DNA of 64,000 nucleotides from Octopus vulgaris (lineage: Eukaryota), in assembly GCA_951406725.2 (NCBI GenBank), contig OX597817.1, positions 99,696,001 to 99,760,000 on the forward strand, in the 5' to 3' direction. A program made the translations under genes and the position numbers. Positions 11,050-60,439 of this stretch are shown here, one piece after another (the stretch's first letter is position 1; every line of letters starts with the position of its first letter). The notes below the pieces were generated by a model that saw only the letters and a list, made by a program, of their open reading frames with translations, was not told where the DNA came from and ran no database searches.

Positions 11050-12170
11050 ACAAAAATGCATAGAATCAGACAACCAAAGCACATAGCTGAATAATGTAGA
11101 AACAGAAAGTGAGAAAAGAACAAAGATGTGTACAGTAAACCTTAACATGTCAAAGGAGTAAATAGAAGAAATTCTGATGTTTCAGGTGATACCTGTCATC
11201 AAGCAGAATACAAAAAGAAGCATATAAAAAAGAACTGAGAGGTAAGAGAATCAAAAAAATTTATGATACCAAATATGATGTCTGTCCAGAAGATGGTATG
11301 AAAGCTGGAAAATGGAAAAGGAGAACCAGAAGTGGAAGCACAATCTGGGTTACAGTAGCTTTAAATTGAGAAAGAGTGATGGAGCAAGGGAGAGAGAGAG
11401 AGAGAGAGAATAAGAAGAGTGAAAGAGGAGAGAAAGTAAAAAGAGGGAGGGTGAATGGGAGAAGGAAGAGAAAAAGAAAAGTGGAGGGTGAGAAGTAGTG
11501 AGGGAGGGAAATTGAGAGAAGTAGTGGGGACCACACAATACCAGTAGTTGTGCATGTGCATAGATACACGGGACATGTGTGATAAAAAAGAGATACCAAT
11601 GTGCAATATATTTGTGTGGTGTCTTACGATATAGAAGAATGTGTGAGGGGATGGTAGGTTAGAGATATGTTTGTAGGTTCAAGGTGAGATGATATGTATG
11701 TCAGTATGTTTGTGGGTGCATGCACATGAAGTGGGAAGTTGTGTCCATATGACCATGTAATTTGTGGCATGTTCAATGTTTATAAATGTATAGATGGATA
11801 GGAAAGTGTGGGTGCAGTCTGTGAGATGGGTGTGTAAAAGTGTGGTATACCATGATGGAATGAATGTGAGAGGACGGAACATGGGGCGGTGGAGTGTAGT
11901 TATGTTATCCTAGCCACACTTTTCATACACAAAGGTGGAGAGCAGCCAAGGTGGAAGATTAGGCATTGTTCTTTTTGGTAGCGAGAAGTAAGGGATTTGT
12001 GGTGTGAAATAAAACCAAAGACTGATAGATGAGAAATAGCATGTACAAGAGAGTTGAAAAAGCATCCAACTGGCGATATGGTGTTCTTTAGGTAAATGTT
12101 ACATAAATATTCAGAGATAGAATCCAGTAAATGTTTTTAGTGGTGCAGGTAAAATATAGAAGTGATATTG
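11050..12170 (-). mobile_element. Decayed Penelope-like element 3' end with hammerhead remnant
   Basis: Minus strand near 12150 reads FTCTTKNI; downstream (11170-11210) ttctgcTTGATGAcaggtatcacctGAAACatcagaa. Confidence 0.5.
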
Positions 12171-13663
12171 GTTGCGTCCCAAGAAGCAGGCTACTAACCC
12201 CAAGATTCCAAGTTCAATTCCAGGCAGTGACCTGAATAATAATAATAATAACATCCAAACTGCTACCTAAGAGAATGAAGAATATTCGAATTAAGACTCA
12301 AATGGCTGACTTGCAGAAAAGTGGAATCCTGTATTCTGCAAGAATCCTAAGAAAGATTCTTAAGATTTGAAGAGACTTGTTATGCAGCCTCAGGAAAACA
12401 TCCTTGCTAAATAATATACAGCATGTAATAGTTTTAATAAAAGTAGTAATAATAATCAAAATATATTTATTGTACAAATATACAAACAACATTTCAAAGA
12501 ATTCAAAACTGAAAGTAGAGGATTAAAACAAATCTATATAATAATCTGCTTATTCATTCGATTGTCATATTTTAGTTAGAGAAGTGGAAGTGGAGTGAGT
12601 GAGAGGTGGAGTAAAAGTGGTGAGGAATGTGAATAGAGAAAAAAGAAGAGAGGAGTATAATAATAACTAAGGCTAAATGCATCACATGGTTAGTTGAAGG
12701 GAGAGGCCAAGAGTGAGAAAAAAAGACAGTAAGAGAAAAGAGGGAGAGAGAAGTGTTAATGATGTGATGTAGGGTGGGGAGGTAAAGAGAAAGAGATATG
12801 TTAGGATACAATATTTAGCAGAGGGTGGTGAGGTTAAAGACAGAGAGAGATCGACAGAGGTGGCAGTTACATTGAGAGAGAGAGGGTGGGGGCAGGCAGA
12901 TAGCCTTTGTATTGTCAGAGTAGGGATACATCAACAACAAGAAAAAGTAGATACAAACAAATGGCTGAACTGAACTGAAATGAAATGAGCTTTGTTACTA
13001 AAGAATATAATGATGATGCTGGTGGTGGTGGTGCTGGTACTGGTGGTGGTGCTGGTGGTTTTGTATTGAGAGTAAAAAGAATTTTTTTATGGAACTAATT
13101 CTATATAAGAGGGTACTGAATGCAGACAGATCTGATATTATCCCTCATTACACAGGCATTGCAATGGAAATGAGATAGAATGATAAAGGCAAAATGGGTA
13201 TTCTTCTATTTGTTCACACTTTACACTTTAGTCTGTTAGAGAGGGGGGAGGAAGGGGAGGAGGAGATGGAGGGGGATGTGGAGGAGACGGAGGCAGAGGA
13301 GGAGGGAGTGGGGTAAGAAGAAGAGGGAATGTGAGAGTGAGTGAGAGAACAGATAGCCAGCGGATGCATTATGCAAAGAGAAAGAGAAATGTTAATGACA
13401 TGAAGAGAGGAATTACATGGTTAAAAAGTTTGTTGAAGGGGTAGAGAGAAAGAGAAATATAAAGAGTTTAGCAGAGGGAAATTTCAAAATCATATAATAT
13501 ATCGTTATGATTGGAAGTGAAATAATTTAACAAATTAAAAATAAAAATGCAAATCACCCTTTCTTTCTTAAATAGCTTCCCTTAGTCTTTTCCATTCTGT
13601 GGAATTTCCATGGATCTCACTAGAAAGGAATAAAGTTACAAACTACTAACCGTGAATCGTTTT

Positions 13664-13694
<31 letters not shown>

Positions 13695-14522
13695 TCATCA
13701 TCATTTTACATCCTCTTTTCATGCTGGTATAGGTTAAACAGGTTGTGATGGTCCAAGTTTGCTCATATTTGGGGCCACTGCACTTTAAGATGGGTCAGAG
13801 GATCTCATCTCACTCATACATTCCAATGTAGCATGGCTTTCATGGTTAGATACTATCTGTAATGTCAACCACATTATATCATGATACCAGCACAATTTAC
13901 CCTGTCTCTTGCAAAACTAAAATGTTTTCTCTGCAGTGTCTCTAATCATTCAAAATAAACACGACTAAGAGGGTAAGTAGAATAAAGGGACTGATGATCA
14001 AGTGGATAAAAGAAAAGAGAATATGAATATAATGATAGGAAATAGAGTGATAGAAGGACAATAGTACGGAGAGGGAGTAATGGAAGAGAGATAGTGATAG
14101 CTGCATCCTGGTTGTTGGTAAGGAGATTGAATAGAGAAAGAGCATGAGCAGCATGATGAGATAGCAATAAAGATGGATCATGTTCAGAGAGGACAAATAA
14201 CGGATTGTAATAGAGATAAACAATGATAAATATCAATGAAAAGAGAGACAGTAGAGGGAATTGAATGCAGACAGATTTGAAATTATCCCTCATTACACAG
14301 GCATTGCAATGGAAATGAGATAGATAAAGGAGTAATGGTGGAAGATAAGGAGAGTGATAAAGAGTGATAGTGAAGGAAATTGAATATAGATTAAGTGCCA
14401 TCCCTCACTGTACAGATGGTATGGTACAATGAATAGAAGACAAGTTATAGATGAGAGATGACTGAAGAGGGCAGTAAATGGAGACTTACATGAAATATAA
14501 TGAGCAAGAGACTAAGTATATA

Positions 14523-15142
14523 CCGTAAATCCTCGAGTATAATCCGCATTTTTTTCCTAAAATTTAAAGGTCAAAATCCCTAGTGCATACTATATACGAG
14601 GTTAAAAATTACTATATACAAGGTTTGTATTGGCAGTTTGCATCCTTACCGTGGCAAACAATAGATACTTAATTAAATGCCAGTATTAAATGTTTGAACT
14701 ACTGTGGGTCTTTACTAGGGTTTTTTTATAAGTGCAACTTAAACCTGTACATTAATCTCCAATAAAACATTTTTTACATTACATGCCCATAAAATGCCTC
14801 ATAGATCTTATTCAGCTATTTTTAAACTTGAAGTTATATCATATGCTGAAGAGCATGGTAATAGGGCTGCCAGAAGAAAATTTGATGTTGACAAAAGCAA
14901 TGTCAGGTTATGGAAGAAGAAATAAAGATGAAATTAAACAGATGCCAAAGATAAAGAAGGCAATAATAAAGGATGTTACCATATACATTTTTTTAAAACC
15001 AATGATGTTATATAGACCTCCTTGAGTCAAGTTAGAGAAGGGGTGCGTATTATACACAAGGTTTAGGTTTTTCAGAGGTAAAGCTCCCTAAAAATCCCCT
15101 GCGTATTATACTCAAGGGCGGACTATACTCGAGGATTTACGG
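14523..15142 (+). mobile_element. pogo-type internally deleted DNA transposon (MITE-like, 620 bp)
   Basis: TIR ccgtaaatcctcgagtata(a/g)tccgc at both ends, TA flanks; 14794-14925 encodes MPHRSYSAIFKLEVISYAEEHGNRAARRKFDV (Brinker-type HTH). Confidence 0.88.
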
Positions 15143-18704: not shown

Positions 18705-19990
18705 CAAGGTAGTATCAAAAAGTTCCTGGACTAATTCTGTAGTGTACCAACAGATGGCAGCAACAGTTGCATGCACAGTGAGAGCTAGCAGTGACCTTCA
18801 TGAGGCAGCGTTCTGAGTGACATTGCTGTGTTTACTTTGCAAGTTGTAAAATTTGTATTTTTATGATCACATGTATGCTGCAGTCTGTGATTTTGTCATG
18901 GACAGCAAGTTGGAACAAAGAGCCAACATAAATTTGCATTAAACTTGAGAAGTCTACTACATAGACATTTGGCAAGCTTACAGTGATGAGGCAATGGGTT
19001 GTACGCAATGTTTCAAGTGGCATGAGCACTTCAAAAGCAGAAGAACATCCCTGGAAGATGATGAGCGATCTGGAAGACATGCCACAAGTGTCACCCTCAG
19101 AAATGTGGAGAAAATTTATCAGCTTATGTATGAGGATCGTTGGAGGACAATAAATGACATTGTTAATGTTGTTGGTCTGTCGAATGGGTCCGTGCAGGTA
19201 ATCCTAACGTCTGAATTGAACATGCAGTGAGTCTCCGACAACTTTGTCACCCGTCTGCTGACCACTGAGCAGAAGACGTCAAAGACTGTCAAGATCTCCA
19301 TCAGCATGCTACTGATGACCCATCCTTCATGTCAAGGATCATCGCCAGTGACGTGTGTTGGGTCTACAGGTACAACCGTGAGACAAAGCAACAGTCATCA
19401 CAATGGAAGAGCCCTTCACCTCCACAACCAAAGAAGGCACAACAGAGTCACAGCTCAATAAAGAGCATGCATATCACTTTTTTCAACATCTGCAGAATTG
19501 TGCAACAAGAATTTGCTTCCCAGGGTCAGACCATCAATCTACTGAAACATTTTGAAGCATTTGAGGGAGGAAATTTGATGAAAGTGCCCAGATCTGTGGA
19601 GCATGAAGAATTGGATTCTTCACACCCACAATATACCCTGTCACCAAGCTCTCCTCACTCATGAATTTCTCACCAAAAATAACATGGGATCGTTTCCGCA
19701 CCTGCCCTATTCGCCAGATTTAGCATTTGCAGGCTTCCATCTCTTCTTCAAAATGAAAAGGCAGCTCAAAGGTTGCTGTTTTAACCCCATTGTCGACATC
19801 CAGAACAAATCACAGAAAGTCCTCAACTGGCTTATGAAAAACGATTTCCAGGTCAGATTCCAAAAGTGAAGGAACCTGGGACAAGTGTATTGCTGTGCAA
19901 GGTGACTCTTTCACAGGAGATCAAGTTAAAACTTAGGTAAATAAGTTTTTTTTATTAAACGTAACTAGTCCAGAAACTTTTTGACACAAT
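18705..19990 (+). mobile_element. Full-length decayed mariner element (~1.29 kb)
   Basis: TIRs tcaaaaagttcctggacta / tagtccagaaactttttga; transposase pieces EQRANI, SLEDDERSGR, IIASD.CWVY.Y.RETKQQS.QW, PYSPDLA with frameshifts. Confidence 0.9.
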
Positions 19991-20819
19991 AACTACACAA
20001 ATTATAAAACAGGTAATTGTTGATTTGAGGGCGTGTGGTGTGGGAGGAGGGGGTAGTGTGTGTGTGTGAGAGAGAGAGAGATTGCGCAAGTGGGCAAGAA
20101 CACTCATGTTTGCTATTGTATGATGGGAAAAGAAAATAAAAACGAAAGAATGAGAGAAAGAGAGAGAGAGAGATAAAGAATAAGCAAATAATAGAAGGGA
20201 GAGAGAAGAGTAAGCATGAGAAAAACTTGAGCTGAGGGTGTTTTCCTCAAGGAAATAGTTGTAGACATGACGTACACCAAATGTGTGTGATATTTATAGA
20301 ACTAAAATTGCCACTACTATAACATGTATATCACTACATCATTTATGTAAATACACGTGTGTGCATGTATGTCAGTTTCTTCGAAAGCACTTATTATTTC
20401 ATGTATAAATTTCAATACGTTTACATAATATATTTGTTTATACTTCTTGCATTGAAGAGTACAGTAATTATATAATTAATTTAATTTAATCTAATTAATT
20501 TAATTAATTCTATTTTAGACCTCTTACTAGGATTTTGATTTGTATAGAACTCAGGATTTTCTTGGACAGGTTGATTATTTTCAGTTGGACTTGTTTATTT
20601 GCTTCCGTTTCACATCTCTGTTTCTCTGGTTTGCATCTAAAAAATGGTTGTAGTATGTGGATTGTAGTGGAAGGTCTGTATTTTGTTTGGTTTGCTGAGG
20701 GAAAGGTGGGTGTAAATTGTGTCTATGGTAGTATGTTTGTGGTGGAGGTGGTTGGGTAGTGTACTGGATTATGGTTGTACTGAGGATTGTTATATCGTCT
20801 GTGGCTAATGTAGTCTGGG

Positions 20820-21153
20820 TTCAAATTTCACCTGCGCCTCAGCAAATGTAATCTATGTCATGACATGCATAGGATGTGGTAAACTCTATATTGGACAAAC
20901 AGGAATTTCGCTCTGTCAAAGAATCACCATTCACAAAGAGCAAATCCGTCACCCACAATACAGACAGTTAAAGGTGAGTGAACACATAGAAAGATATGCC
21001 AGGAATCTTAATCCCAATTTCCAAATATTTCCCTTTTACCAATGCTCACAGAACACCACAATGCAACAAAGGTTGAATAAAGAGGCATTTTTCATCAACA
21101 AATTTCTCCCCCAACTAAATATGAACACACAACTCAATACAGAACACCACTAA
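20820..21153 (+). pseudogene. Penelope-like GIY-YIG endonuclease C-terminal fragment
   Basis: NFTCASANVIYVMTCIGCGKLYIGQTG...RITIHK...VSEH...RLNKEAFFI...PQLN. Confidence 0.88.
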
Positions 21154-22251
21154 CTCTTCAATTGAAACCACTAAACCCTATACACCTCCTACACCACTCA
21201 CATCTCTAAATCCAGAACTACTTACCTCCCTTACAAATAATCTTTTTTCTCGGGAACTATTAGACCTGACACCGTATATTAACTGGCGTTGTTCAAACGA
21301 TGAATAGCTTCGCGTAAACCATTGGTTCATTTTGTTCTCTTACTTTATTATCATCTTATAATCATCTCATAATAATGACCTTTATGACTCGTATTACTAC
21401 CTCAGTCAATCTAAATGTATATATTTGTCGCTACCTGTCATAAATAGCCGTTTTCTATTTGCAATATGCATTTTCGTTGATTTTTCATATTTTACCCTTA
21501 CATTTCCACATGTATTTTATATTTTCTTTTCGTAACATATTTCTACTATGTATATATATATATATATATACATGCATATATACACACATGAGTCATCTAA
21601 GAGACCATAAGTCAGGGAGAAGTTGCACTCATATATCTGTCAACAGAGTGAATATATTATCCAAAATGTATAGTATTATATATCCATCACAGCTGATCTT
21701 ACCACCTGGTTTTGCACAAGGAATACAATGGAGTGTTAGGTAACAATCTGGTTGTATAACCTTACGCTCATCAGAGTTATCCAACATGGAAGGGAATATG
21801 GTGACTACTCTCCATTGTCAGAGGTGGATTAACACAATTGGTGTGCGGTTACTGTAAAAAAGGTGGTGAAATGAGAAAAGACAAGGGGATTAGGTTAGGA
21901 CATTCCCACAAAAGCACCACACTTAATGATGCACACTTTCACCAAAAACACATCAAGATAATTCTCATCAGTCTCACAGCTTACCTACCAAGGGACATAA
22001 TTCCTAACCTAATCCCCTGGCCCTTTCTCGTTTCACCACCTTTTTCACAGTAACTGCACACCAGTTGTGTTAGTCCACCTCTCTTTTGCTGAACTGCTAA
22101 GTTATGAGGACATAAAAGCATTAAGTCAAGCAGTGGAGTTAAGGACAAACACACACACACATTATATATATTATTCGAAATTATCCATCATGGCTGATCT
22201 TACCAAATGGTTTCATGCAATAGAGAGCAGTCGCCATATTCCTTCCATATC

Positions 22252-22342
22252 AGCTAACTCTGATGAGTTTAAGATTATATAATCAGTTTGTTACCTAGCA
22301 CTCCATTGTATTCCTTGCATGAAACCAATTGGTAAGATCAGC
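22252..22342 (+). ncRNA. Hammerhead ribozyme-like motif with long stem II insertion (second, inverted copy at 21690-21780)
   Basis: CTGATGA (22260) ... GAAAC-caattg-GTA with palindromic ACCAATTGGT stem III; stem I imperfect. Confidence 0.6.
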
Positions 22343-22899
22343 CATGATGGATAATTTTGAATAATATATATAATATGTGTGTGTGTTTGTCCTTAACTCC
22401 ACTGCTTGACTTAATGCTTTTATGTCCTCATAACTTAGCAGTTCAGCAAAAGAGACTGACAGAATAAGCATCAGGCTTTAATAAAAATAACTGGGGCTGA
22501 TTCATTTGACTAAAAAGTTTTCAAAGTAGTGCCCCAGCATGACCACAGTCTAATTGGCTGAAACAAATAAAAGATAAAGATAGTGTTTCCACAAGTATTT
22601 TTCAACCAAATTTTCATATCAAATTCAACCAATATATAAGAAACAACTGGGACACCAAATATATTCAGCTCTTGAAAATGAGACTATACAAGTTTGAAAA
22701 ACATTGAATATGAATTTAGAGACTCTATTATTCCAGGAAAAAAATAAAAAACCCAAGAAAATATGCAAGTCTCAGATGAAAATGATGAAACTTGAACATA
22801 ATCATGTATTTAGGCTGCCTCAAAGATGAGTGACAATGATCTCATCTTTGTGGCTGGGATTTCAATAGGTATGTCAGACATGGTATCTGCCATAGTATC

Positions 22900-23588: not shown

Positions 23589-24820
23589 TCATCATTATCA
23601 TCATCATTTAACATCTGCTTTCCATGCTAGCATGGGTTGGACGATTTGAGTGAGAACTGGTGAACCAGATGGCTGCACCAGGCTCCAATCTGATCTGGCA
23701 GAGTTTCTACAGCTGGATGCCCTTCCTAACACCAACCACTCCGAGAGTGTAGTGGGTGCTTTTACATGCCACCGGCACGAGGGCCAGTCAAGTGGTACTG
23801 GCAACGGCCTTGCTCAAATGGTGTTTTTCTACGTACCACCTGCACAGCTGCCAGTTCAGCGGCACTGATAACAACCTTGCTCGAATGTTTTTTCACGTGC
23901 CAGTTAGGCGATACTGGTAACGATCACGCTCAAATGGTGCTTTTTACATGCCACCAGCATGGAAGCCAGTTAGCTGCTCTGGCAATGATCACACTCGGAT
24001 GGTGCTCTTAGCGCTCCACTAGCACAGATCCCAGTCATTGAATTTGATTTCGATTTCACTTGCCTCAACAGGTCTTCACAAGCAAAGTTTAGTGTCCAAT
24101 GAAGGAAAGGTATGCAAAAGTGGGCTGGTTACACCCCTGGCATAAGCCATTAGATTATGGTCTCACTTGGCTTGCCGGGTCTTTTCAAGCACAGCATATT
24201 TCCAAAGGTCTTGGTCACTAGTCATTGCCTCAGTGAGGCCTAATGTTCGAAAGTCTTGCTTCACCACTTCATCCCAGGTCTTCCTGGGTCTTCCTCTTCC
24301 ACAGGTTCCCTCAACTGCTAGGCTGTGGCACTTTTTACATCCATTCTCGCCACATGACCATACCAGCGCAGTTGTCTCTCTTGCACACCACATCTGATGC
24401 TTCTCTCCAACTTTTCTCTCAAGGCATTTACACTCTGTTGAGTATGCACACTGACATTACACATCCAACGGAGCATACTGGCTTCATTCCTTGCGAGCTT
24501 ACGCATGTCGTCAGCAGTCACGGCCCATGTTTTACTGCCATGTAGCATGGCTGTTCAAATACACGCGTCATACAGTCTACTTTTTACTCTGAGCGAGAGG
24601 CCCTTTGTCACCAGCAGAGGTAAAAGCTCTCTGAGCTTTGCCTAGGCTATTCTCATTCTAGCAGCTACACTTTCGATGCACCCTTCCCCGCTACTGACTT
24701 GATCACCTAGGTAACAGAAGCTATCAACTACTTCTAGTTTTTCTCCTTGGAATGTGACAGAAGTTGTTCTCTGCACATTTTCAGTGCTTATTGCTCCTGA
24801 GCATCTGCCACATACAAAAA
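23589..24820 (-). mobile_element. 5'-truncated RTE LINE (~1.2 kb)
   Basis: MLHGSKTWAVTADDMRKLARNE, GRGRPRKTWDEVV, 3' UTR repeat array and (GAT)n tail as in the full-length copy. Confidence 0.92.
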
Positions 24821-25397
24821 CTATCTTGTGTGTGTCTATATGATGTATGTATATGTAGGATATATATTAAAATATATATCTTACATATACATACATCATA
24901 TACACATACATATATATACATATATATATATATAAATAAAGTCCCATGAGGGTGAATATAATTAGGATGAATATATAATGAATTCAGCTTAAAAAGATTT
25001 ACAAAATTAAAAAATTAAATTAAGATTAGGGTAACTAAGCATCAAAAATAAAAATAATAAAATAAATATTATTTATGTAGCATATTTATAAACCTTTACA
25101 GTGGAAGTGTATATACATCTTATGTAAACCAGGGTAAGGGTTTAATATATAGTGGACTCCAAGTGAAAATTAAAAAAACATTGAATAAAAGATATATATA
25201 AATATATAGTAAAAATATATAAAGTAAAAATAAAAATTACAAAGAACCAGGAGAAATATGAAAAAATAAAAAATATAAAAATTATATCTGCAGTAAGTTG
25301 CTAAACCTTTATGAGTGGAGGTGTATATAAGTTGTAGGTTAAGTCAGGATAATATATAAAACATTCCGTTTTAAAATTAACTAATAAAGGAAATATA

Positions 25398-26653: not shown

Positions 26654-28413
26654 TATATAAAAATGAAAATAAAAATGAAAATAAAAAATTACTTTGAAAA
26701 TTACGAAGAACCAAGTGAAATATGAAAAATTATAAATTACAAATATATATAGATCAAGAGGTGAAATAAACCAGAAATGAATGGTAGGAAGGCAATCATT
26801 GTTTAGACAAAGAGAAATATGAAAAGTGATGGTAGATTATAATTTATAGAAAAAATTATAAATCCTGAATATTATAAAATTATAGTTGGAAAATTGGAAG
26901 GAGCTGAACATAGAAGGTTGGTGAAACCAAAAATCTGTTTAAATGTTTAAAACATGAGTGTGAAAAATTAGCAGATATAAGCTAATTAGGGTTAGCAAAA
27001 ATTGTAGTATAATGTCAGTGATGTAACTGGATGCTAGTATTTCATATATAAGAGCTGTAACAATCATAAACTGACAATCGGATGAACATACATCCCAAAA
27101 TAGAGGACATAATAGTAGTGGAGTAAGAAGTGAATAGAGGGATGGTTTGTAGGGGTAAGTAGGTAGAACATTAAACCTGTTATGGAGCTGTGGGCAGATG
27201 ACTGTGGAATGGTATAGGGTCACTCATCAAGAAAGCTCCATAGTATACAATACACTGGGGTTGGGGTGGGGGTCAGTATGCTGGGGGAGAGTATCTATGT
27301 GTGGAGGGGAAAATAACTAAGGGATGGAGGGGAGGGAAACTAAACTATGTAAGTTTTGCAAAGGTCCTATAGTATTTATGTGGGCACCATATCAGAACTT
27401 CATTTCACTGTTACTACTGTCAGTAATACCTTCCACTGCTTCAAAATTTTAAACAGAGATTTTATAATCATGTCCGTTCTTTTAAGAACTACAGTAAGCC
27501 TAAGTCCACATCACTAGCAGAGGACCCCATATTTGATTTCTTTGACTGTGGTGACGTCTGCACTCCCATACATATGGGAGGAGGAGGTGAATGCAATCTA
27601 TGCACAGCCGATGCACTAGAGATATTACACAATAAGGGTAATAATATTAACAAAAGATGTGTATGTGTGCATATGTGTGTGTGTGGATATATATATATAT
27701 ATATATATATGCCTATGTATCACTAACTATTTCTCTGCCTTTACATTTTATCTTTTTATTTAGCCATACATACTTTAACTTACATACTTTAACTTACATA
27801 CTTTATAATTCTTTTGACCAATCTTTAATTAAACTCTAAATTAATAATTTCTGCTTTAACTTTTAGCCAATACTGCCCCTATTAGAGTTCCCGTCTTTTT
27901 CTGTTTCTCTTTGCATCTCTTTTTCCCTTGCCTACACACACCAGGGTCACAAAGTAGGTCTGCTAGCTGGGAGGCAATTTATGCTACTCTAGCACAGACC
28001 ACACTACTACAGACCCCAAGGAGGAGAAATTCAACCACATAGACTCCATGTTACTGTTAATCTCTTCAATTCAGTGAGGGTCAATTGAACCAGCTCAGCT
28101 ACAAAGATCTGCACCCATCCACTAAGGAATTGGCTCAGTAGATAAGATGCTTTAATGATACTATTACCTGTCAACCTAACTCAATGGGTAAAGTTAAAGA
28201 ATTCAGTACATAGGTATCACACATTCTGAATGAAATAGACAAGATCCAGTGCACCTCCATCATTACCAGTTTGCTGGTGGCACCAGCTCAACAGGGCAAC
28301 CCAACTGAAATGACCCAATTGGTGACATGGTATATTTCTTCATCTTGACAATGCTCATTCCCAAGTCGTTAATTTGACTGAAAATGCTATACAAAAGAGT
28401 TCAGTTGGCATTA

Positions 28414-28454
<41 letters not shown>

Positions 28455-43062: not shown

Positions 43063-44579
43063 TACCACCTCCATTCACTACAAACACACAGACTCACACT
43101 CATACCTAAACGTCTCTTCCTCCCACCTCAAACACACTAAGCTTTCTATCCCCTATTCCCAATTCCTCTGTCTACGTAGACTCTGTAGTGACGACCATGA
43201 CTTTGAGACTCAGTCTCAACTCATGGCTTGCCACTTTACCTTACATGGATATCCCCTCACCACTATCCACACCACCCTTGCCAGAGCACGTTCCGTAGAC
43301 CGTGCATCTGCTCTCTCCCCCCAAACCCGCCCTGCAGTCTCCCGCCTCCCTTTTCCCCTCACTTACAACCCCACCACCCTACCTCTCCAACGCACCATTC
43401 TTAGAGCTTTCCGGCATCTCCAGTCTGACCCGTCCACTTCACACCTCTTCCCTAACCGACCCCTCCCCTCTTTCAAATGAGCCCATAACCTACGAGACCT
43501 CTTGGTCCACAGCTTCTTCCCTGACCCTACCTCCCAACCTGGCTCGTTCCCCTGCTCCCACCATGTTGCCGCACTTGCCCTTACCTCTCCAACACCACCC
43601 TCCTCACTGGCACTCATCACCGACCCTATCGCATCCTCGACTCCTTCACCTGCACCTCCAGCAATATCATCTATTGCATCTCCTGCTCTCTCTGCCATTC
43701 CCTGTACATCGGACAAACGGGACGCCGCTTGGCTGACAGGTTCGCGGAACACCTCCGAGACATCCGCCTTGCCAACGATACACTGGTCTCATGCAATTTC
43801 TGCTCCACCAGTCACTCCTTGGAACACCTATCTGTGTTCGGATTGTCCTTGCACAGAGGCCATCCAGATTCCCATTTGCACCGTGAACAGGGATTAATCT
43901 TCTCTCTTCGCTCTTTTACGCCATTTGGTCTCAACTCTCCCCCCCCTTTTCATCTAACCCACCCCGTGACTCCTACTTCTCTTCAGTCCTTCATCTTTTC
44001 ACCCCTACTCTCTTTCCCTCCTCTCCCTTCTTCCCTCTTCTTCCTCTCCCTTTTTCCCTCCTTTCCTCTTCCCCCTCTCTCTTTCTCTCTGCTCCCTCAC
44101 TCCCCTCCTCTCTCATCTCCCCTTCCCTCTCTTCTCTCCCCCACACCACACTACACTACACCATACAACATTACACATCACATCATACATACATACACAC
44201 GTCCAAACCACCAGCCCTCTTCCACATGCACATACATACTCTCTTATGAACACATGCACCTTCAGGTTTGAGCGAAGTCACTTGACCCTGTTATCTCCCC
44301 TACTATCCCTCTAGCGGCTAACGTCCGTCTGACCTCTAATGTTTGACCTCCGATCTCTGACTTCTGAAATCAGAACGCCATGTTGGATTGTTAGCCCCTA
44401 CACGCAATTTTTTTCTCTCCTTGTTTCTCTTCTTGTTTCTTTTCTGTGTATCTTTCTGTCGAAGAGCGTAGGCTCGAAATGTAAAAGACTTGTTTTATTT
44501 CTATTCCTGAGCGCCATACTAATACATTATTTGTTTGTACTCCACCTGCCTTCGTCTTTTGTTTATTTTCGTAAACCTT

Positions 44580-45205: not shown

Positions 45206-45659
45206 TTTGAATATAAATATATATTAAAACAACAGGGCACCCATTGGTAAAACCCAACAGTATAAAATATACACATATACATGAATAAAAGGTTGGACTT
45301 TCCTATGTCTCCTGTTTTCGAAGAAGAGCTTTGCTTGAAATGTGAAACAACCACTCTTTCTTTACTTCTCTGAGCATCTTATTAATACATTGCATGTACC
45401 ACATCCTTGCATTGTGTTTTTCTTCTCAGTTTTTTTAAAATTAATTCTATCATATATTGATAAATTATAACCAATTGGAGTGTTTAGTCATTATACATTT
45501 TGATTTATTCCTCCTTTCACCTTTGTGTCATCTGAGCACTTCTAGCTGATGCCCTATTTCTATTTTTCTTCTTCAGTTTAACGAAATTACTTTTCGGTTT
45601 AATGAACTTATAAAATTATCTTCTTGCATATATATAATTATGTATATATGTATGTATGT

Positions 45660-46189: not shown

Positions 46190-49100
46190 ATCATCATCAT
46201 CATCATCATCATTTAGCGTCCGTTTTCCATGCTAGCATGGGTTGGACGGTTCTGCTGGGGTCTGTGAAGCCAGAAGGCTTCATCAGGCCCAGTCAAATCT
46301 GGCAGTGTTTCTACGGCTGGATGCCCTTCCTAACGCCAACCACTCCGTGAGTGTAGTGGGTGCTTTTTACGTGCCACCCGCACTGGTGCCAGCCAGAGCT
46401 GGCAAACGGCCACGAACGGATGGTGTTTTTTATGTGCCACCGGCACGAGGGCCAGGCGAGGCTGGCAACGAACACGAAACGGGGCGGTGCTGGCAACGGT
46501 CACGAAACGGAAGGTTCTCTTACATGCCACCGGCACTGGTAACACATCTGCAATTTCCATTGATCGATTTCCATTGATCGATTTCGATTCTGATCCTCAC
46601 TTGCCTCAATGGGTCTTCACAAGCAGAGTTTCGACATGCCACCGGCACTGGTAGCACATCCGCAATTTCCATTGATCGATTTCGATTCTGATCCTCACTT
46701 GCCTCAACACGTCTTCACAAGTAGAGTTTTGTGTCCCAAGAAGGGAAGGTATGCATACGTAGGCTGGCTCCATCCCATGTAGAAGGCCACGGGTTGTGGA
46801 CTCACTTGTCCTGCCGGGTCTTCTCGCGCACAGCACACTTCCAGAGGTCTCGGTCTCTAGTCATTTCCTCGGTGAGACCTAAAGTTCGAAGGTCGTGCTT
46901 CACCACCTCGTCCCAGGTTTTCCTGGGTCTGCCTCTTCCACAGGTTCCCTCAACCGCTAGGGTGTGGCACTTTTTCACACAACTATCTTCATCCATTCTC
47001 GCCACATGACCATACCAGCGCAAACGTCTCTCTTGCACACCACAACTGATGCTTCTTAGGTCCAGCTTTTCTCTCAAGGTACTTACACTCTGCCGAGTGT
47101 GAGTACTGGCATTACACATCCATCGGAGCATACTGGCTTCATTTCTAGCGAGCTTACGCATATCCTCAGCAGTCACGGCCCATGTTTCACTGCCATGTAG
47201 CATGGCTGTTCGTACACACGCATCATACAGTCTGCCTTTCACTCTGTGCGAGAGGCCTTTTGTCACCAGCAGAGGTAAGAGCTCTCTGAACTTTGCCCAA
47301 GCTATTCTTACTCTAGCAGTTACACTTTCAGCACACCCGCCCCCGCTGCTGACTTGGTCACCTAGGTAACGGAAACTATCAACTATTTCTAGTTTTTCTC
47401 CCTGGAAAGTGACAGAAGTTGGTCTCAGAGCATTTTCAGTGTTTATTGTTCCTGAGCATCTGCCACATACAAAAACCATCTTCCTAGTTAGCCTTCCTTT
47501 GACATTGCTGCATCTCTTATGTGTCCATAGCTTACACTTGGTGCATCTTATAGAGTTTCTACCTACACCTTTTCTACAGATCGAGCAGGGCCATCTACCT
47601 GAAGGTGTTTGTGATTTGTCTACCTTCCTACTGATTACGACTTTGGTTTTAGCTAGATTGACTCTGAGGCCCTTCGATTCTAATCCTTGTTTCCACACCT
47701 GAAACTTCTCCTCCAGTTCTGATAGTGACTCAGCAATTAGAGCAAGGTCATCAGCATAGAGGAGCTCCCAAGGGCATCCTGTCTTGAATTCCTCCGTTAT
47801 TGCCTGGAGGACTATGATAAATAGGAGGGGGCTGAGTACTGAGCCTTGGTGGACCCCTACCTCTACCCGGAATTCTTCACTGTACTCATTTCCAACCCTC
47901 ACCCTACTAGCGGCGTCCCTATACATGGCCCGCACAGCTCTCACTAACCATTCATCTATCCCTAGTTTTCTCATTGCCCACCAGATAAGGGATCGGGGGA
48001 CCCTGTCGAAGGCTTTCTCCATGTCAACAAAAGCCAGGTACAGGGGCTTATCTTTGGCTAGGTATTTCTCCTGCAGCTGCCTTACCAGGAATATAGCATC
48101 AGTAGTACTTTTCCCTGGCACAAACCCAAACTGCATCTCATCTAAACTAACTCTCTCTCTAATTAGTTGGGCTATGACCCTCTCCGTAACCTTCATCACC
48201 TGGTCCAACAGCTTGATACCTCTGTAGTTGTTTGTATCTAGGGCATCACCTTTACCTTTGTAGCAGTTGACTATTATACTGCTACACCAGTCATTGGGTA
48301 TGACCCCTTTGTGTATCACCTGATTAACTATATGGGTGACTAGGCTATAGCCGACACTACCAGACATTTTGAGCATCTCTGCAGTGATTCCTGATGGGCC
48401 TGGGGCTTTCCCTGTCTTCATGCTTCTAATTGCCTTAGCTACCACAGAACTATCAACTCGGATAGCTGGTCCCTCTGTTGGGTCAACATTCGGCAGACTC
48501 TCTTTATCCCATTCATTTTCTTCATTCAGCAACCTTTCATAGTGGCATCTCCAAACCTCTCTCTTTGCATCCTCATTTAGCGCAAGTGAACCATCTTCCA
48601 TGCGAACACACTTCTCTCCTACCACATCACGATTCTCTCTCACACACTGTCTTGCAACACGAAACACCTCCAGTCTTTGGTCCTCACGGCGCAGAACATT
48701 GGCAAATTTTTTCTTATCTGCTTCCCCTCTGGCTAAATAAACCTGTCTCCTAGCTTCTCTTTTGGCAGTCTGATACAATTCCCTGCTACCCCCATTTTTC
48801 CAGACCTTCCAAGCCTGTCTCTTTTCTCTAATAGCCCTGTCTACAATATTGTTCCACCACCACGTTATTCTAGGTCGAGAGGGGACTTTGCACCAGCCAC
48901 AGATCTGGTCAGTGGCTCTCAGCAGGTTGTCCCTTAGAAACGTCCAGCTGTCTTCTACCCCCTGTGATGCTCTATCCCCTTCTACTTCGTCAGAGGCTTC
49001 AAGTAATATGTCCCTAAATCTCTGTCCATTTGCAGGATCTTTAAGCTTCCAGATCCTTCTTCTCCATATTTGTCGTCTTCTGGTTGTCCTCCTAGTCCTG

Positions 49101-50249
49101 ATCCTAAAGTCACTAACTACCAGTCTATGTTGTGGGGTACATTCTTCACCTGGGAAGGTTTTGGCATTTATAAGCAGCCATCTCTCCCTTTGCCTTGTAA
49201 GGATGTAGTCAATTTGGCTGGTATGTTGGCCCGATTGGTAAGTGACTAGGTGGCTGGTAGGTTTCCTGAAGTTAGTGTTGCAAATCATAAGATTATTTGC
49301 ATCGCAGAACTCCAGCAGCCTGGTTCCCTCCTCGTTGCGGGAGCCATAGCCGTAGCCTCCATGTACGCCATGGAAGCCCCCAGCATGTCGTCCAACGTGA
49401 CCATTGAAGTCACCAGCCACAAAGATAAGGTCTCTGTCGTTCGTCAATGAGGTAGTCTGCAGTAGAGTGTCATAGAATCGGTCTTTCTGTCCATCGGGTA
49501 GCCCCGACTGAGGAGCATAGGCTGATATAATGGTTGCTAAACTATGATGAAGCACTAATCTAATCTTAAGTATTCTGTCACTTACTCTGATTACCTCAAT
49601 TACTTTATCTACCCATTTCTCAGCGATAAGTATACCCACGCCACCAACCCCGTCAGTATTCCCTGCCCAGAAAATCTTGTACCTGCGTTCCTTGCCTGTG
49701 AGGAACCTAGCTGATCCTCCTCTCCACCTTATTTCTTGCATGCAACATATATCCACACATCTCCGTTCAAGCATCTCGACTATCTCACCAGACCTACCTT
49801 TCAGAGTGCCAACGTTGAGGGTGCCAACCCTGAGGGTGTGGAAGGCATGGGCTCTAGAGACCCTGGGACGGTGGACAGTAGCTTCGTGTACCTGAAAAGA
49901 AAACTCGCATTTGGCAGAATTCATGTGCAAAAAATGAAGTAGTAAAGTAGCCTTCAGTACAACCTGCATAACGCTAGCCTTTCATATTTTGCACTGTATG
50001 AACATTACCTTACATAGGTCGAGACTAGGGGTAGGGAGGGGTAGGGATGGTGAGAGCATTTGCAGTCTTCATGGGAAGCAACCCCGGAATGGAAGAGAAT
50101 AGGAACTTCCGGCATGCGTGGTGGGGGTGGGAGGGCGGGTGCACCGTAGCTGAGTAAAGAGGTTCTGTTAATCGTGAGCTAGCAAATGGGTTAGTATGAA
50201 TCGGGAGACAATACTAATTGAAAAATTGAAAAATCAGAGTGGCTATGAA
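46190..50249 (-). mobile_element. Apparently full-length RTE-clade LINE
   Basis: (GAT)n tail at 46190-46212, 3' UTR with repeat array, intact ORF, ~280 bp putative 5' UTR; no TSD found. Confidence 0.92.
46802..49969 (-). CDS. RTE LINE polyprotein: APE endonuclease + reverse transcriptase with PHD-like insert
   Basis: 1055-aa uninterrupted ORF: TLNVGTL, QE.RW, SAYAP, GDFNGH, IDYIL, QH.LV; KAPGP, YRGIKLL, QFGF, FVDMEKAFD, GVHQGSVLSP, YADD, FRYLG, RLRWYGH, RGRPRKTW. Confidence 0.96.
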   Translation of the reverse strand: MQVVLKATLLLHFLHMNSAKCEFSFQVHEATVHRPRVSRAHAFHTLRVGTLNVGTLKGRSGEIVEMLERRCVDICCMQEIRWRGGSARFLTGKERRYKIFWAGNTDGVGGVGILIAEKWVDKVIEVIRVSDRILKIRLVLHHSLATIISAYAPQSGLPDGQKDRFYDTLLQTTSLTNDRDLIFVAGDFNGHVGRHAGGFHGVHGGYGYGSRNEEGTRLLEFCDANNLMICNTNFRKPTSHLVTYQSGQHTSQIDYILTRQRERWLLINAKTFPGEECTPQHRLVVSDFRIRTRRTTRRRQIWRRRIWKLKDPANGQRFRDILLEASDEVEGDRASQGVEDSWTFLRDNLLRATDQICGWCKVPSRPRITWWWNNIVDRAIREKRQAWKVWKNGGSRELYQTAKREARRQVYLARGEADKKKFANVLRREDQRLEVFRVARQCVRENRDVVGEKCVRMEDGSLALNEDAKREVWRCHYERLLNEENEWDKESLPNVDPTEGPAIRVDSSVVAKAIRSMKTGKAPGPSGITAEMLKMSGSVGYSLVTHIVNQVIHKGVIPNDWCSSIIVNCYKGKGDALDTNNYRGIKLLDQVMKVTERVIAQLIRERVSLDEMQFGFVPGKSTTDAIFLVRQLQEKYLAKDKPLYLAFVDMEKAFDRVPRSLIWWAMRKLGIDEWLVRAVRAMYRDAASRVRVGNEYSEEFRVEVGVHQGSVLSPLLFIIVLQAITEEFKTGCPWELLYADDLALIAESLSELEEKFQVWKQGLESKGLRVNLAKTKVVISRKVDKSQTPSGRWPCSICRKGVGRNSIRCTKCKLWTHKRCSNVKGRLTRKMVFVCGRCSGTINTENALRPTSVTFQGEKLEIVDSFRYLGDQVSSGGGCAESVTARVRIAWAKFRELLPLLVTKGLSHRVKGRLYDACVRTAMLHGSETWAVTAEDMRKLARNEASMLRWMCNASTHTRQSVSTLREKLDLRSISCGVQERRLRWYGHVARMDEDSCVKKCHTLAVEGTCGRGRPRKTWDEVVKHDLRTLGLTEEMTRDRDLWKCAVREKTRQDK

Positions 50250-51388
50250 CCTGCACCAAGTGTAAGCTATGCCACATAAGAGGTGCAGCAACGTCAAAGG
50301 AAGGCTAACTAGGAAGATAGTTTTTGTATGTGGCAGATGCTCAGGAGCAATAAATACTGAAAATGCGCAGAGACCAACTTCCGCCACATTCCAGGGAGAA
50401 AAACTAGAAATAGTTGATAGCTTCTGTTACCTAGGTGACCAAGTCAGTAGTGGGGGCGGGTGTGTTGAAAGTGTAACTGCTAGAGTAAGAATAGCCTGGG
50501 CAAAGTTCAGAGAGCTCTTACCTCTGCTAGTGACAAAAGGCCTCTTGCTCAGAGTAAAAGGCAGACTGTATGACGCATGTGTACGAACAGCCATGCTACA
50601 TGGCAGTGAAACATGGGCCGTGGCTGCGTAAGCTCACAAGAAATGAAGACAGTATGTTCCGATGGATGTGTAATGTCAGTGTTCATACTCAACAGAGTGT
50701 AAGTACCTTGAGAGAAAAGTTGGACCTAAGAAGCATCAGTTGTGGTGTGCAAGAGAGACGTTTGCGCTGGTATGGTCATGTGGCGAGAATGGATGAAGAT
50801 AGTTGTGTGAAAAAGTGCCACACCCTAGCGGTTGAGGGAATCTGTGGAAGAGGTCGACCCAGGAAAACCTGGGACGAGGTGGTGAAGCATGACCTTCGAA
50901 CTTTAGGTCTCACCGAGGAAATGACTAGAGACTGAGACCTTTGGAAGTATGCTGTGCGTGAGAAGACCCGGCAGGACAAGTGAGACCATAACCCGTGGCC
51001 TCTACCTGGGATGTAGCCAGTCCACTTATGCATACCTTTCCTTCTTGGGACACAAAACTATATTTGTGAAGACCTGTTGAGGCAAGTGAAAATCAAAATC
51101 AAAATCAAAATCGATGTGATACCAGTGCCGGTGGCATATAAGAGAACCATCCGAACGTGGCCGTTGCCAGCACCGCCCCGACTGGCCTCCGTGCTGGTGG
51201 CATGTAAAAAGCACCATCTGATCGTGGCCATTTGGCACCCACTACACTCACGGAGTGGTTGGCATTAGGAAGGGCATCCAGCCGGAGAAACATTGCCAGA
51301 TCAGACTGGGCCTGGTGAAGCCTTCTGGCTTCCCAGACCCCAGTTGAACCTTCCAACTCATGCTAGCATGGAAAGCGGACGCTAAACA
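50250..51388 (+). mobile_element. 5'-truncated RTE copy, head-to-head with the full-length element
   Basis: ORFs 50269..50631 and 50570..50935 nearly identical to the C-terminus of the 1055-aa ORF; 3' UTR present. Confidence 0.93.
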
Positions 51389-51700: not shown

Positions 51701-52177
51701 TGATAGATATATTCTATATCTCTTCTATTTACTCTATATCCTTTCAAAATTTCTTTCAAGCATTACCCATTGCAATTTGTCTTGGCCTAACGGCCCTAAA
51801 TGTCTGTCTTCGTCAATCATTTCAGTACATCCACACTGGTGTCGGGTGTTCATTTGAAGCCCTAACTCTCCACAAATTTTATATTTTTAAAATTTCTGAA
51901 TGCTGCTGCCTTATGAAGTAATCTTATCTTGTTGTTAAAAGCATGAAGCAGGTACTAATAAATAGTTGACAACTAAGGAGTTAGACTTCGTTTGATATTT
52001 TGTCAAGTACTTGTCACTCGTTGAGTGTTTACATATTTTTTGCTTGTTGGTGAAGTCCTGTACTTAATGTGTATTTTTCATTTTTATTTTATACATACAT
52101 ACACATAAACACACACACATATATATATATGTATGTATATATATATATGTATGTATGTATATATATATATATATATG

Positions 52178-52375
52178 TAGTTAATCCAAACAAGAAAGCA
52201 CAAAAAAACACAACAACGCGAGAACGTAGAACAAATATAGTATTATTGGACGCTCAGGAAAGAAGGAAAGAAGGAGGATTTAACGTTTCGAGCGGAGTTC
52301 TTCGTCGGAAACATAGGAGAAGGAAAGATCCAGAGAAGGGAAGACAGGAAAAATAATCGCCAACGGTACACATAA
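52178..52375 (-). mobile_element. Solo Penelope pLTR-like fragment with minimal hammerhead; inverted partial copy at 52729-52790
   Basis: Shares ttcctgagcg..aata.ta.tttgtt with 44500-44580; minus strand gttt-CCGACGA-agaactccgctc-GAAACGTT-aaat. Confidence 0.7.
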
Positions 52376-52381
52376 TATATA

Positions 52382-52454
<73 letters not shown>

Positions 52455-52502
52455 ACATATATATACACACACACACAAACACAAACGCACACACACATAT
52501 AT

Positions 52503-52646
52503 ATAAAAGTTAGGATAAGGCCGGTTTATGGGATCATGAGATCTGATGATACGCTTTAAAGCCAAGCCCTTCGTGGATGTGAAACCTAAAGTAATCCCAT
52601 AAACCGACCTTATCTAACTTTAATATATACTGCTCTATAACTTATA

Positions 52647-52648
<2 letters not shown>
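52503..52648 (+). mobile_element. Fold-back mini-element with hammerhead in a (TA)n tract
   Basis: gagat-CTGATGA(52543)...GAAAC-ctaaa-GTA-atccc; inverted arms 52503-52534 / 52594-52626. Confidence 0.7.
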
Positions 52649-52712
<64 letters not shown>

Positions 52713-53106
52713 ATGTGTGTGTGTATATCTTCCCTTCTTTCCTGAGCGTCCAATAATACTTTATTTGTTCCACATCCTCGCGTTGTTGTATATATATATA
52801 TATATATATACATATACTTATTGATTCACACACGCTCGGGACGAGTATGGTAACATAAGAATAGACACCAAGTTAATGCTCAAACAGTTTAAATTTTTAA
52901 AATCCAACATCTTAATAAAAGTAGGTACTCTAGAAGCAGATGAGTAGGTTAGAAAAAGTTCGAGCGAATATCAATAGAGACGGGCAAACTATTACAGGAT
53001 GGTGGAAACATTTACATATGTTGTTACATAAAATTCCATGAAATAAAACAGCCTATGTAAATATATTATATGCACCTGTGAGTGTTTGCCCATCCTTCTT
53101 TACACA

Positions 53107-53351: not shown

Positions 53352-53537
53352 TATATTAAAGTTAGATAAGGTAGGTTTATGGGATTAGCTTTATAGCGTA
53401 TCATCAGATCCCAAAACCAACAGGTTTGGGGATAGGATGATACGCTATAAACCTAAGCCTTTCATGGACGTGAAACTGAAGGTAATCCCATAAATCGGCC
53501 TTATCTAACTTTAATATATAATGCTCTATAACTAAGA
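53352..53537 (+). mobile_element. Second fold-back copy of the same hammerhead mini-element
   Basis: Nested inverted arms; the inverted arm preserves gggatCTGATGAtacgctata; the forward strand has GAAACtgaagGTAatccc. Confidence 0.7.
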
Positions 53538-57015: not shown

Positions 57016-57084
<69 letters not shown>

Positions 57085-58700: not shown

Positions 58701-59010
58701 AAGTAATCAAGTCAATGGAAGCATTCAATATCACCTCGCCCCAAAAAAGCACCTGCATATACTGCCTTGAGTGTGAGACAGTTTTTGACCAAAAATGGCA
58801 TGACCCCATTCTTGCTCCCTGCGACTGCGACTTTTTTTTTGTTCCCCCGAATGAAAAATGTCCTTAAAGGAAAACTTTTTGCAGATGTAGAAGAGGTGAA
58901 GAAAAAAATGATGTAGGTGATAAAAGGCATCCTTTCACAAGAGTTCCAGAACTGCTTCAAACAGTGGAAAACGTGTCTGGACCTATGCATTGCTTGTCAG
59001 ATGGAGAAAA
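58700..59010 (+). pseudogene. mariner transposase C-terminal fragment
   Basis: QWK...SPRPKKA, V.QFLTKNGM, LAPCD..LFPRMKNVLKGKLFADVEEV. Confidence 0.8.
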
Positions 59011-59079
59011 ATCAGAAGAGTAAGGAAGATGAGGCAAAACTTACATAGTTAGTACCATAATTTTTTCCTGAATAACTTT

Positions 59080-59900
59080 GGCAATACATGCTTTTAAATT
59101 ATCGTCTAAGAACAATGTCCCTTTATGATTGACCATTGATGGGCATTTCTTCTGCAAATTTTTGTGCAGTGCTTCCAATTGACAATACTTTTCCACATTA
59201 ATTGTTTCATTTCAGTTTAGCACTTCATGATAGACGACACCCCACATATACCACCAACACAGATGTAATCCTAGTTTAGGGATGAACTCTCCTTTTTTAT
59301 CACTTATGATGATTCTGTCTATGAAATGTTTGGTAGCAAGCCTATTTCAATGATGAACTGAGGGAAACTCTTGGATTAAACTAAGTAACAGTCAGGTGAC
59401 GAGGAACGCACTGACCAAGTTTAAATACTTTTCCTAGTTCAAGAAGGTGTTTTATGATCAAAGCGTGACTTGAATTGAACTATTTTACTAATTATCATGC
59501 AGATTGTCTAGGATTTTCCTAATTATAGTTTTCTGAAGCTCAATATTGACAGAACTTGGCTGACTAGATCAAGGGGAATCTGTAAGAGAACAATTTCCCA
59601 AGTGAAACTGGTCAAACCATTGCTGGTTTGTCTGGACACTTAAAGCTTCATTTCCATAGACAGAACAAATACTTCTTGCTGCTTTCATTGGTGAATAGCC
59701 TCTTTTGATTTCATACAGTATGCAATGTCTTATGTGAGTCTGATCGAAACTAATTTTAAAATAGTAAAATTGATACAAATTTAACCACTGGTATGAAGTA
59801 ATCTGCAAAGGAACAATAGAACATTAGAATGTAAAACTTAATGCTCATTTTACTATAAGTGTTGAAAAAGTACCTTCAAAGTGATTGATTCAAAAATACA
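59080..59900 (-). pseudogene. mariner transposase N-terminal fragment
   Basis: HIRHCILYE.KRG....AARSICSVYG.EALS....QQWF..F..GN.SL.DSP, then LGQCVPRHL. Confidence 0.85.
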
Positions 59901-60439
59901 GTATCGATCTTCCATACACTGTATGTATAAAGAGAAAATTTTGTATGTATAGGTATGGTTGAAGCATTGGTATAACCATAAAGTTCTGGTGATCTGATGA
60001 GCTAGACTTCTTTATCTGTACTGATTTGTAAATATACAACCATATTGTGTAATACATAGCATACATATTGGTGCAGACAAGTAAAATAATTTATTATAAA
60101 CTGAGATTATTATTACATGATGAAAGCTGCCAAACGGCCATAATCCTAAGGATAACAAGTGGTTAAATAAATATATTCACCTTTCATACATCCCAAATTT
60201 TTATGGCTTATATACTCTTCATGAAACTTTCTCATTGAGTGGATCTCCTGGTTATCAGCTGCTTAGAACTCAGCATGATACACCTCCATATTGGATTACC
60301 ATGTTGTCTGATAGCCAGGTCTGCTAGAGGAGCTTTCCATGATAGCCACAGAATTCTATGAATCCATATATCACACTACAAATATATATCTATTTATAGG
60401 CCATTATGTGTGTATGTATATATATATATATATATTATA

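Follow-up and report, generated by a model that had tools for sequence, protein, structure and literature searches.

Why does a 64,000-nucleotide stretch of the Octopus vulgaris genome (contig OX597817.1, positions 99,696,001 to 99,760,000, forward strand; hereafter the window) carry hammerhead ribozyme motifs at so many sites, and which elements left them there? A first-pass annotation had listed 13 full motifs and three half-motifs and had read them as a large, diverse set of non-autonomous retrozymes mobilized by the proteins of Penelope-like elements (PLEs). We find instead that the motifs are mostly remnants of the pseudo-long terminal repeats (pLTRs) of at least seven PLE families, together with one retrozyme-type family, and that the phenomenon is largely a known one. 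Very probably, most of the motifs belong to the pLTRs of several high-copy PLE families, likely left as short 3' pieces by target-primed reverse transcription that stopped early at (TA)n tracts, and a single family, here called E, consists of a closed non-coding unit of 357 nt, likely a retrozyme with circular or multimeric RNA as its template.

Hammerhead motifs in the window and in the genome

We searched with a strict descriptor that demanded type I order, an exact core or its U3-A8 variant, at least 3 bp in helix I, at least 4 bp in helix II, and a palindromic stem III. It matched the window four times, compared to a mean of 0.05 and a maximum of 1 in 100 chunked dinucleotide shuffles. A random sample of the genome (140 evenly placed 10-kb stretches, 1.4 Mb out of 2.8 Gb in 227 contigs) yielded 31 strict matches, compared to 0, 1, and 3 in three shuffles, confirming that the motif is more frequent than in shuffled sequence. 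Extrapolation from these 31 matches gives ~60,000 intact-core motifs genome-wide. The high density that had been claimed for the window survived only in part, since the four strict matches stand against 1.4 expected per 64 kb and two of the four are arms of one insertion. We conclude that the window is somewhat above the genome average in hammerheads and is no special locus. A count made with a library of family sequences (24 vs. 5.4 for the window) is inflated because the sites of the window itself had served to build the library and because four of the 24 matches are spurious ones in long interspersed nuclear element (LINE) copies. The source of these four is a hammerhead-like match in the 3' ends of LINEs and short interspersed nuclear elements (SINEs) at L106 (L-numbers denote individual genome loci examined), which we treated as chance.

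A hammerhead-like motif was present at all 16 listed coordinates, whether by descriptor, within a few bases, or by direct reading. Among the 13 sites called full, the strict descriptor was passed only by 39535 and by 44451, the latter with a changed core; 52278 also fits under looser settings, and the others carry decay mutations or a very long loop 2. The half-motifs proved to be of different kinds: 28833 belongs to a palindrome that carries an entire U3-A8 minimal hammerhead on each arm, 38301 is a full motif apart from an internal deletion, and only at 42423 does the arm truly start after the 5' core. Two motifs had been overlooked, at 37610-37680(+) and, in degenerate form, at 21295-21333(+). 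The families, proposed to have unrelated flanks, are not all distinct: 44451, 45313, and 52278 are homologous, 21690 belongs with 22252, and 52538 with 53429.

Could the motifs be chance matches in AT-rich, microsatellite-rich DNA? A loose descriptor, which discriminates poorly, gave 13 matches vs. a shuffle mean of 5.7, and an Rfam scan of the window returned 120 matches at an E value of 1 or below, nearly all of them microsatellite matches to microRNA models and none of them a hammerhead. Both results would suit an origin by chance, which the strict counts in the window and in the genome nevertheless render practically negligible. Moreover, each family's own helices I, II, and III all pair: in the majority lines of the aligned copies these helices differ between families, yet all pair around the common core. 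It is this cross-family pattern that provides structural support, as variation within families is uninformative because CpG decay accounts for most differences between copies.

The motifs are type I hammerheads of the PLE type in many high-copy families, as had been suggested. A first look at the genome gave 1655 candidates for family A, 2317 for B, 1203 for C, 1856 for D, 1568 for E, 1023 for F, and 940 for G. The majority lines of C, D, E, F, and H show type I order with CUGANGA, GAAA, and UH. There is an extra base between positions 9 and 10.1 in A, B, C, and G, and a palindromic stem III (15.2-16.2) in all families examined. The pair 10.1-11.1 is G-C in A, B, D, G, and H and A-U in C, and it is a mismatch in E and in the young family F. 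Permuted (SGC, CSG, or GCS) hammerheads were considered and rejected, and 38301, 42222, 42423, and 59991 show type I order in relatives. At least eight further intact-core families, absent from the window, occur in the random sample (L060, L061, L097, L107, L223, L235, L238, L244, and L253).

Most families are tied to PLE reading frames

We then checked whether the families adjoin PLE open reading frames (ORFs). The link, which the first-pass annotation had itself named, should it hold for every family, as grounds against the retrozyme reading, was found for families A, C, D, F, G, H, and G2 and for site 11170, contradicting the view that the motifs are mostly non-autonomous retrozymes. Family A (site 44451) offers the clearest case. 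Its pLTR sequence lies downstream, on the same strand, at all 12 long-ORF loci (with the whole core in 11), and at L145 and L146 two pLTR direct repeats stand 4.3-4.4 kb apart, the 5' one ending in a short TATATA that is followed by leader and ORF. The family A reverse transcriptase (RT) is recognized by Pfam (E value 1e-7), and many frames of 1,000-1,200 aa occur among near-identical-score matches that include a known family A locus. Its ORF contains the Neptune motifs, namely the linker CX2-5CxxC, DKG, plus a GIY-YIG domain at its C-terminal end. Family F (28607) flanks a Hydra-type frame on both sides at L140, and in 5 of 16 further loci an ORF end is located 1.09-1.13 kb upstream; CxCX5C, DKT, and RWK, the Hydra motifs, are all present. 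In solo insertions of F the tail on one arm is the leader, which at L140 runs into the ORF. Family D (21690 and 22252) was found downstream of 8 of 13 relatives of the ORF at 40680-41429, whose fragment retains only the linker CxCX5C of the Hydra motifs. Motif content suggests the clade calls, Neptune for A and Hydra for F and for the parent of D.

The remaining links involve fewer loci. Family C (52538 and 53429) lies downstream of PLE frames in 3 of 13 loci. For family G (28833), one of four upstream stretches (L286) contains a GIY-YIG end (Pfam E value 1.4e-5) and another contains its last residues; 5 of 40 long loci, judged by eye and including the query locus, place G 0.4-0.7 kb downstream of an endonuclease match. 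Family H (42423) is represented by one locus, L211, where a Hydra-like ORF precedes an H-type copy of a related subfamily. We conclude that families A, C, D, F, G, H, and G2 and site 11170 are pLTR remnants of PLEs of Neptune and Hydra type. Full-length elements have the order pLTR, leader, ORF with RT and GIY-YIG domains, pLTR; copies end in (TA)n, and many are inverted and two-armed with a tail on one arm. None of A, C, D, F, G, and H behaves as a closed, ORF-free unit, given their ORF links and a tail that never returns to the hammerhead. Thus, seven of the 16 listed sites (A, C, D, F, and 11170) and two half-motifs (G and H) are PLE-linked, one (E) is retrozyme-like, and six are unlinked.

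Solo copies prevail even in proven pLTR families. In the random sample, a PLE ORF was found upstream of 0 of 12 F copies and 1 of 18 A copies, and in that one case the ORF belongs to another family.

Features of the window

The hammerhead-bearing and PLE-derived features are as follows, with strands in parentheses.

11172-11208 (-): an old PLE's 3' end with a decayed minimal hammerhead; an endonuclease remnant ends 717 nt upstream on the same strand
11921-12136 (-): C-terminal GIY-YIG remnant of a PLE (tblastn 39% to the family A ORF, E value 6.5e-7)
20809-21153 (+): GIY-YIG end of a Neptune-like PLE, family G2 (Pfam PF01541, E value 2e-6; of 150 scored relatives, many exceed 90%)
21295-21333 (+): putative ribozyme, a degenerate hammerhead-like motif that follows the G2 ORF at 147 nt and has an A3-U8 pair and one additional base behind G12 (15 aligned copies)
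21692-21782 (-): family D hammerhead, decayed, with a long loop 2 and a 2-bp core helix I, in a copy at about 21588-21900
22253-22342 (+): family D hammerhead in an inverted two-armed insertion at 22080-22455
28607-28644 (+): family F hammerhead, young, with at least 40 identical copies, in a two-armed insertion at 28453-28680 that has the 5' leader of a Hydra-like PLE as its tail
28791-28870 (both): palindromic insertion of family G (28676-29022) with a minimal hammerhead of U3-A8 type on each arm (28834-28870, +; 28791-28827, -); longer copies have a GIY-YIG ORF end upstream
34998-35061 (+): one decayed hammerhead of type I, without relatives in the sample
37610-37680 (+): type I hammerhead with intact core, no relative in the loci examined
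38301-38385 (-): long-loop hammerhead lacking, by deletion, most of the 5' core and helix II; the 5' core is present in relatives L002 and L247
39341-39897 (-): family E, a retrozyme-like non-coding unit of 357 nt present in 1.5 head-to-tail copies, interrupting the 3' untranslated region (UTR) of a family D PLE
39535-39577 (-): family E hammerhead, intact core, palindromic stem III, 6-bp helix I with an internal loop, long closing stem
39905-41429 (-): 5'-truncated Hydra-like PLE, parent of family D, with a CxCX5C linker; homology to relatives stops at 39905
42221-42307 (+): decayed type I hammerhead with a 50-60-nt loop 2; one 70% relative (L239)
42342-42545 (both): family H two-armed insertion whose arms begin after the 5' core (42393-42414, -; 42423-42439, +); an H-type copy follows a Hydra-like ORF in L211
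43061-44585 (+): 5'-truncated Neptune-like PLE, family A, with RT thumb, GIY-YIG, 3' UTR, and pLTR, then (TA)n
44451-44488 (+): family A minimal hammerhead with fixed U6 core (CUGUNGA)
45314-45348 (+): minimal hammerhead of family A2, decayed and with homology to A and B; a link to an ORF was not found
52167-52372 (-): family B solo element of ~210 nt, with a C4-core hammerhead at 52278-52312; no ORF link found
52540-52596 (+): family C hammerhead in a short two-armed insertion at about 52498-52645; a Hydra-like ORF lies upstream in L033-L035
53383-53487 (both): family C two-armed insertion with a damaged core on the + arm (53431-53487) and an internal deletion on the - arm (53383-53410)
59991-60145 (+): decayed type I hammerhead with a loop 2 of ~130 nt; relatives L266, L123, and L187

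The window consists mostly of repeats with many (TA)n tracts, which dominated the output of a repeat finder, and Pfam identified two GIY-YIG remnants in it. An intact 1059-aa frame of an RTE-type LINE, encoding an endonuclease, an RT, and a PHD-like finger, occupies 46802-49981(-), and partial RTE-type copies lie near 24056-24827 and 50266-51001. Ty3/gypsy-like RT and integrase remnants were seen at 3061-5459(+), and older PLE endonuclease remnants plus a mariner transposase remnant at 27445-27678(+), 40-156(+), and 19269-19664(+).

Family E is a non-coding, head-to-tail unit

Of the window's families, only E (39535) acts as a non-coding unit of retrozyme type; the ORF-linked families do not. 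The window copy repeats with a period of 357 nt and sits within the 3' UTR of the family D element. In five other loci, what follows the usual 3' end of E is the sequence that the window, L121, and L124 have ~100 nt before the hammerhead, closing the unit. Judged by eye, 16 of 40 scored loci continue head to tail (on the 5' side in 9 and on the 3' side in 8, with 1 counted in both), and two cores are spanned at two of the 40 (L290 was checked). The longest ATG frame on the circular unit is 77 aa, its GC content is 42.6%, and its circular fold has a z of -4.0. No PLE ORF was detected within 1.5 kb in any of nine other E loci. These observations make family E a likely retrozyme, which PLE enzymes would copy from RNA that is circular or multimeric.

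Metazoan non-LTR retrozymes, as described in parts of Cervera and de la Pena 2020 (PMC7229834) and of Li, Clavereau and Pollet 2026 (bioRxiv 10.64898/2026.07.22.740005), share with E a non-coding unit of 150-450 bp (357 nt here), less than 45% GC, a single type I hammerhead in each unit, head-to-tail arrangement, and the presence of PLEs in the genome. The former reports mussel retrozymes of 350-390 bp with circles shown by northern blot, and the latter links retrozymes to PLEs. Family E differs in its dispersed, often two-armed copies of one to two units, with no long array seen. The window copy, with 1.5 units and one hammerhead, falls short of the two complete hammerheads by which Li et al. 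call a copy active, and the genome holds only 10 exact matches to a 35-nt majority core of E, which also counts against an active element.

A second retrozyme-like family, absent from the window, was encountered at L090:8466-9671, a young, two-armed insertion with a 99% identical 362-nt tandem and a U3-A8 hammerhead.

Copies lie at (TA)n tracts and are often two-armed

The bias towards (TA)n noted in the first-pass annotation was confirmed. Of 55 sampled copies, 37 had a (TA)4 tract downstream, compared with 16% of random places; in the window, such a tract was present within 400 nt downstream of 13 of the 16 sites. Opposite-strand pairs within 1 kb were common (F 16/34, D 10/29, C 8/20, E 7/15, H 6/8), and same-strand neighbors within 1 kb were rare (D 0/29, F 0/34, G 0/10, H 0/8, A 2/64, B 2/30). 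Many solo copies of F, G, C, and H begin just 5' of helix I, often at the fold-back of two-armed insertions (e.g., at 28597, 28826, and 52538 in the window), and copying may stall or switch strand at the hammerhead. Families are also nested in each other's (TA)n tracts, with F beside G at 28417-29051 and B, C, and a partial B at 52119-52790, as would be expected from repeated targeting of the same microsatellite.

When a PLE inserts, its GIY-YIG endonuclease nicks the DNA and its RT primes at the nick. Priming at (TA)n followed by early termination or strand switching would produce the 100-250-nt solo copies that dominate the genome, and the inserted copies would then decay, mainly at CpG. For family E, the hammerhead may cleave a multimer, ligation may close a circle, and the PLE RT may copy more than one unit from it. 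The minimal hammerheads are predicted to cut only as dimers, formed through the palindromic stem III.

Competing explanations

Several observations weigh against pLTR debris plus one retrozyme as a complete account. Six listed sites (B, A2, 34998, 38301, 42222, and 59991) are unlinked: no PLE ORF link was observed for these or for 37615 in the loci examined, where flanks mostly of 1.5 kb were checked. This absence is weak evidence because the proven pLTR families are also nearly all solo in the random sample. The link for H comes from a single locus of a sister subfamily. For E, no long tandem array was seen among the 40 scored loci, for which no direct pattern test for tandems was obtained, and its copies are 81-90% identical to the window copy, which makes the family look old. 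An attempt to read in vivo cleavage from genomic 5' ends was given up, as only 8 of 85 fell within 5 nt of the cleavage site, in an approximately flat spread. Family B numbers ~26,000 copies by extrapolation from the random sample, no ORF was found upstream in 29 matches or in 13 random-sample copies, and its 5' ends, like those of A, cluster 92-115 nt before the cleavage site (11 of 18 in B, 6 of 13 in A). Random truncation does not predict such clustering, which could mean that solo units propagate themselves.

One may ask whether solo A, B, and A2 pLTRs are more than debris and spread in trans as SINEs do, by way of transcripts that begin ~100-115 nt before the cleavage site, with B possibly lacking any parent. 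Besides the clustered ends and the ORF-free surroundings of B, 705 exact genome matches to the 18-nt 5' start of B speak for this. Against it, the proven pLTR families are equally solo, B is homologous to the A pLTR, and an apparent B tandem at L284 turned out to be two copies with (TA)n between them. The parent of B was not found in a shallow search whose matches all stood at one near-identical score level that included a known family A locus. We regard such spread as possible without being probable; it is compatible with the pLTR explanation. A large and diverse set of non-autonomous retrozymes, as originally envisaged, is by comparison very unlikely. Family E fits it, as does the second tandem unit in the random sample, and most copies of every family have no ORF nearby; however, seven families and site 11170 are tied to PLE ORFs, head-to-tail neighbors are rare outside E, and the tails of F lead into the ORF and not back to the hammerhead. 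Family E itself might have arisen from a genomic tandem of a degenerate PLE end and spread through linear RNA only, with no circle. An uncleaved tandem transcript can indeed give copies longer than a unit, and a C23 copy at L289 that seemed to have been cut at the cleavage site was rejected as evidence because it is an internal deletion. This route seems unlikely to us, though less so than the retrozyme set, given that E resembles the mussel retrozymes, with their demonstrated circles, in unit size, GC, closure, and its canonical-like helix I (in the parts of PMC7229834 cited above) and that the 5' end of the window copy lies within ~1-3 nt of the predicted cleavage site, in this one case only.

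Core variants, chiefly in family A

The one unusual trait of the system is the fixed U6 of family A, here tied to full-length elements with two pLTRs. Position 6 is U in 62 of 64 aligned copies, and position 7 takes all four bases. Exact genome-wide counts of the family A core gave 15,252 U6 vs. 168 A6 copies, and a control T-to-A change at position 4 gave 102, which places the A6 copies near the background mutation level. Contigs from four public runs with four organism labels showed no position-6 variant at 10% or above, and all four bases at position 7. Other families depart from the consensus elsewhere: position 4 is C in 24 of 30 copies of B, the U3-A8 pair of G is a published one, and in most of 15 copies of G2, whose relatives form a young Neptune-like PLE, A3-U8 is accompanied by an additional base behind G12. 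No second case of the G2 core was seen among the related PLE 3' ends examined.

Passages of Perreault et al. 2011 (PMC3088659) describe a weak natural A6C variant (kobs under 0.1 per min), reduced activity of U4C, and natural U3-A8 covariation; A6U fixed in more than 15,000 transposon copies does not appear in those passages. A literature search aimed at an A6U hammerhead core turned up one paper, on twister ribozymes; the supplements of PMC4209133 and of the bioRxiv preprint, or Lunse 2016 on small PLE hammerheads, may list variants. The U6 core of family A is predicted to cut weakly or not at all.

Relation to known systems and significance

Metazoan PLE pLTRs carry minimal hammerheads by the thousands, mostly solo, according to the parts of Cervera and De la Pena 2014 (PMC4209133) that we compared. 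The octopus motifs resemble these in type I order, the extra base between 9 and 10.1, the palindromic stem III, their number (thousands, in many families and mostly solo), pairs on opposite strands at distances of 100-700 bp, the U3-A8 variant, and the 2-bp helix I variant. They differ in host, in the fixed U6 of A, the frequent C4 of B, and the A3-U8 plus insertion of G2, in the mismatch at the base of helix II in E and F, and in loops 2 that reach 110-130 nt. Inverted partners, a one-sided tail, and (TA)n bias are recorded for Neptune and Hydra PLEs in the sections of Craig et al. 2021 (PMC8557442) used here. The endonuclease-positive (EN+) elements of these clades share with ours the C-terminal GIY-YIG, the linker motifs, the pLTR hammerhead, (TA)n targets, an inverted 5'-truncated partner, and a tail on one end; our tails of ~50-70 nt (F, G, and H) compare with 30-40 there, and our clades are assigned by motifs.

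For cephalopods, the literature searched, as far as its accessible text goes, contained no description of PLE hammerheads apart from Naiad remnants (PMC8557442) and the giant squid genome, for which 235 Rfam hammerhead hits are given (PMC6962438). In a repeat annotation of an octopus (PMC13282606), 31 PLE families are listed as recently active, and the word ribozyme is absent from the text available to us. Minimal pLTR hammerheads, the (TA)n bias of PLEs, and PLE-derived retrozymes have all been published for other animals, and the host group appears undescribed in the literature that our searches reached.

The value of the system lies in its scale, ~60,000 intact cores by extrapolation, and in a natural experiment on the need for cleavage, which the consulted portions of PMC4209133 and PMC8557442 both state as an open question for PLE hammerheads. 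Family A is a young autonomous element with a fixed core change, and its rare A6 copies can serve as natural controls. Tentatively, and on the doubtful side, a recently active Neptune-type PLE with intact 1,000-1,200-aa frames may have amplified to more than 15,000 copies with its catalytic A6 changed to U, its helices kept, and position 7 drifting, the core of G2 being altered further. If such a hammerhead does not cleave, its fold may persist in a role other than catalysis, for instance to bind the element's RT or to mark the stop of copying, and solo A and B pLTRs may spread as SINE-like units.

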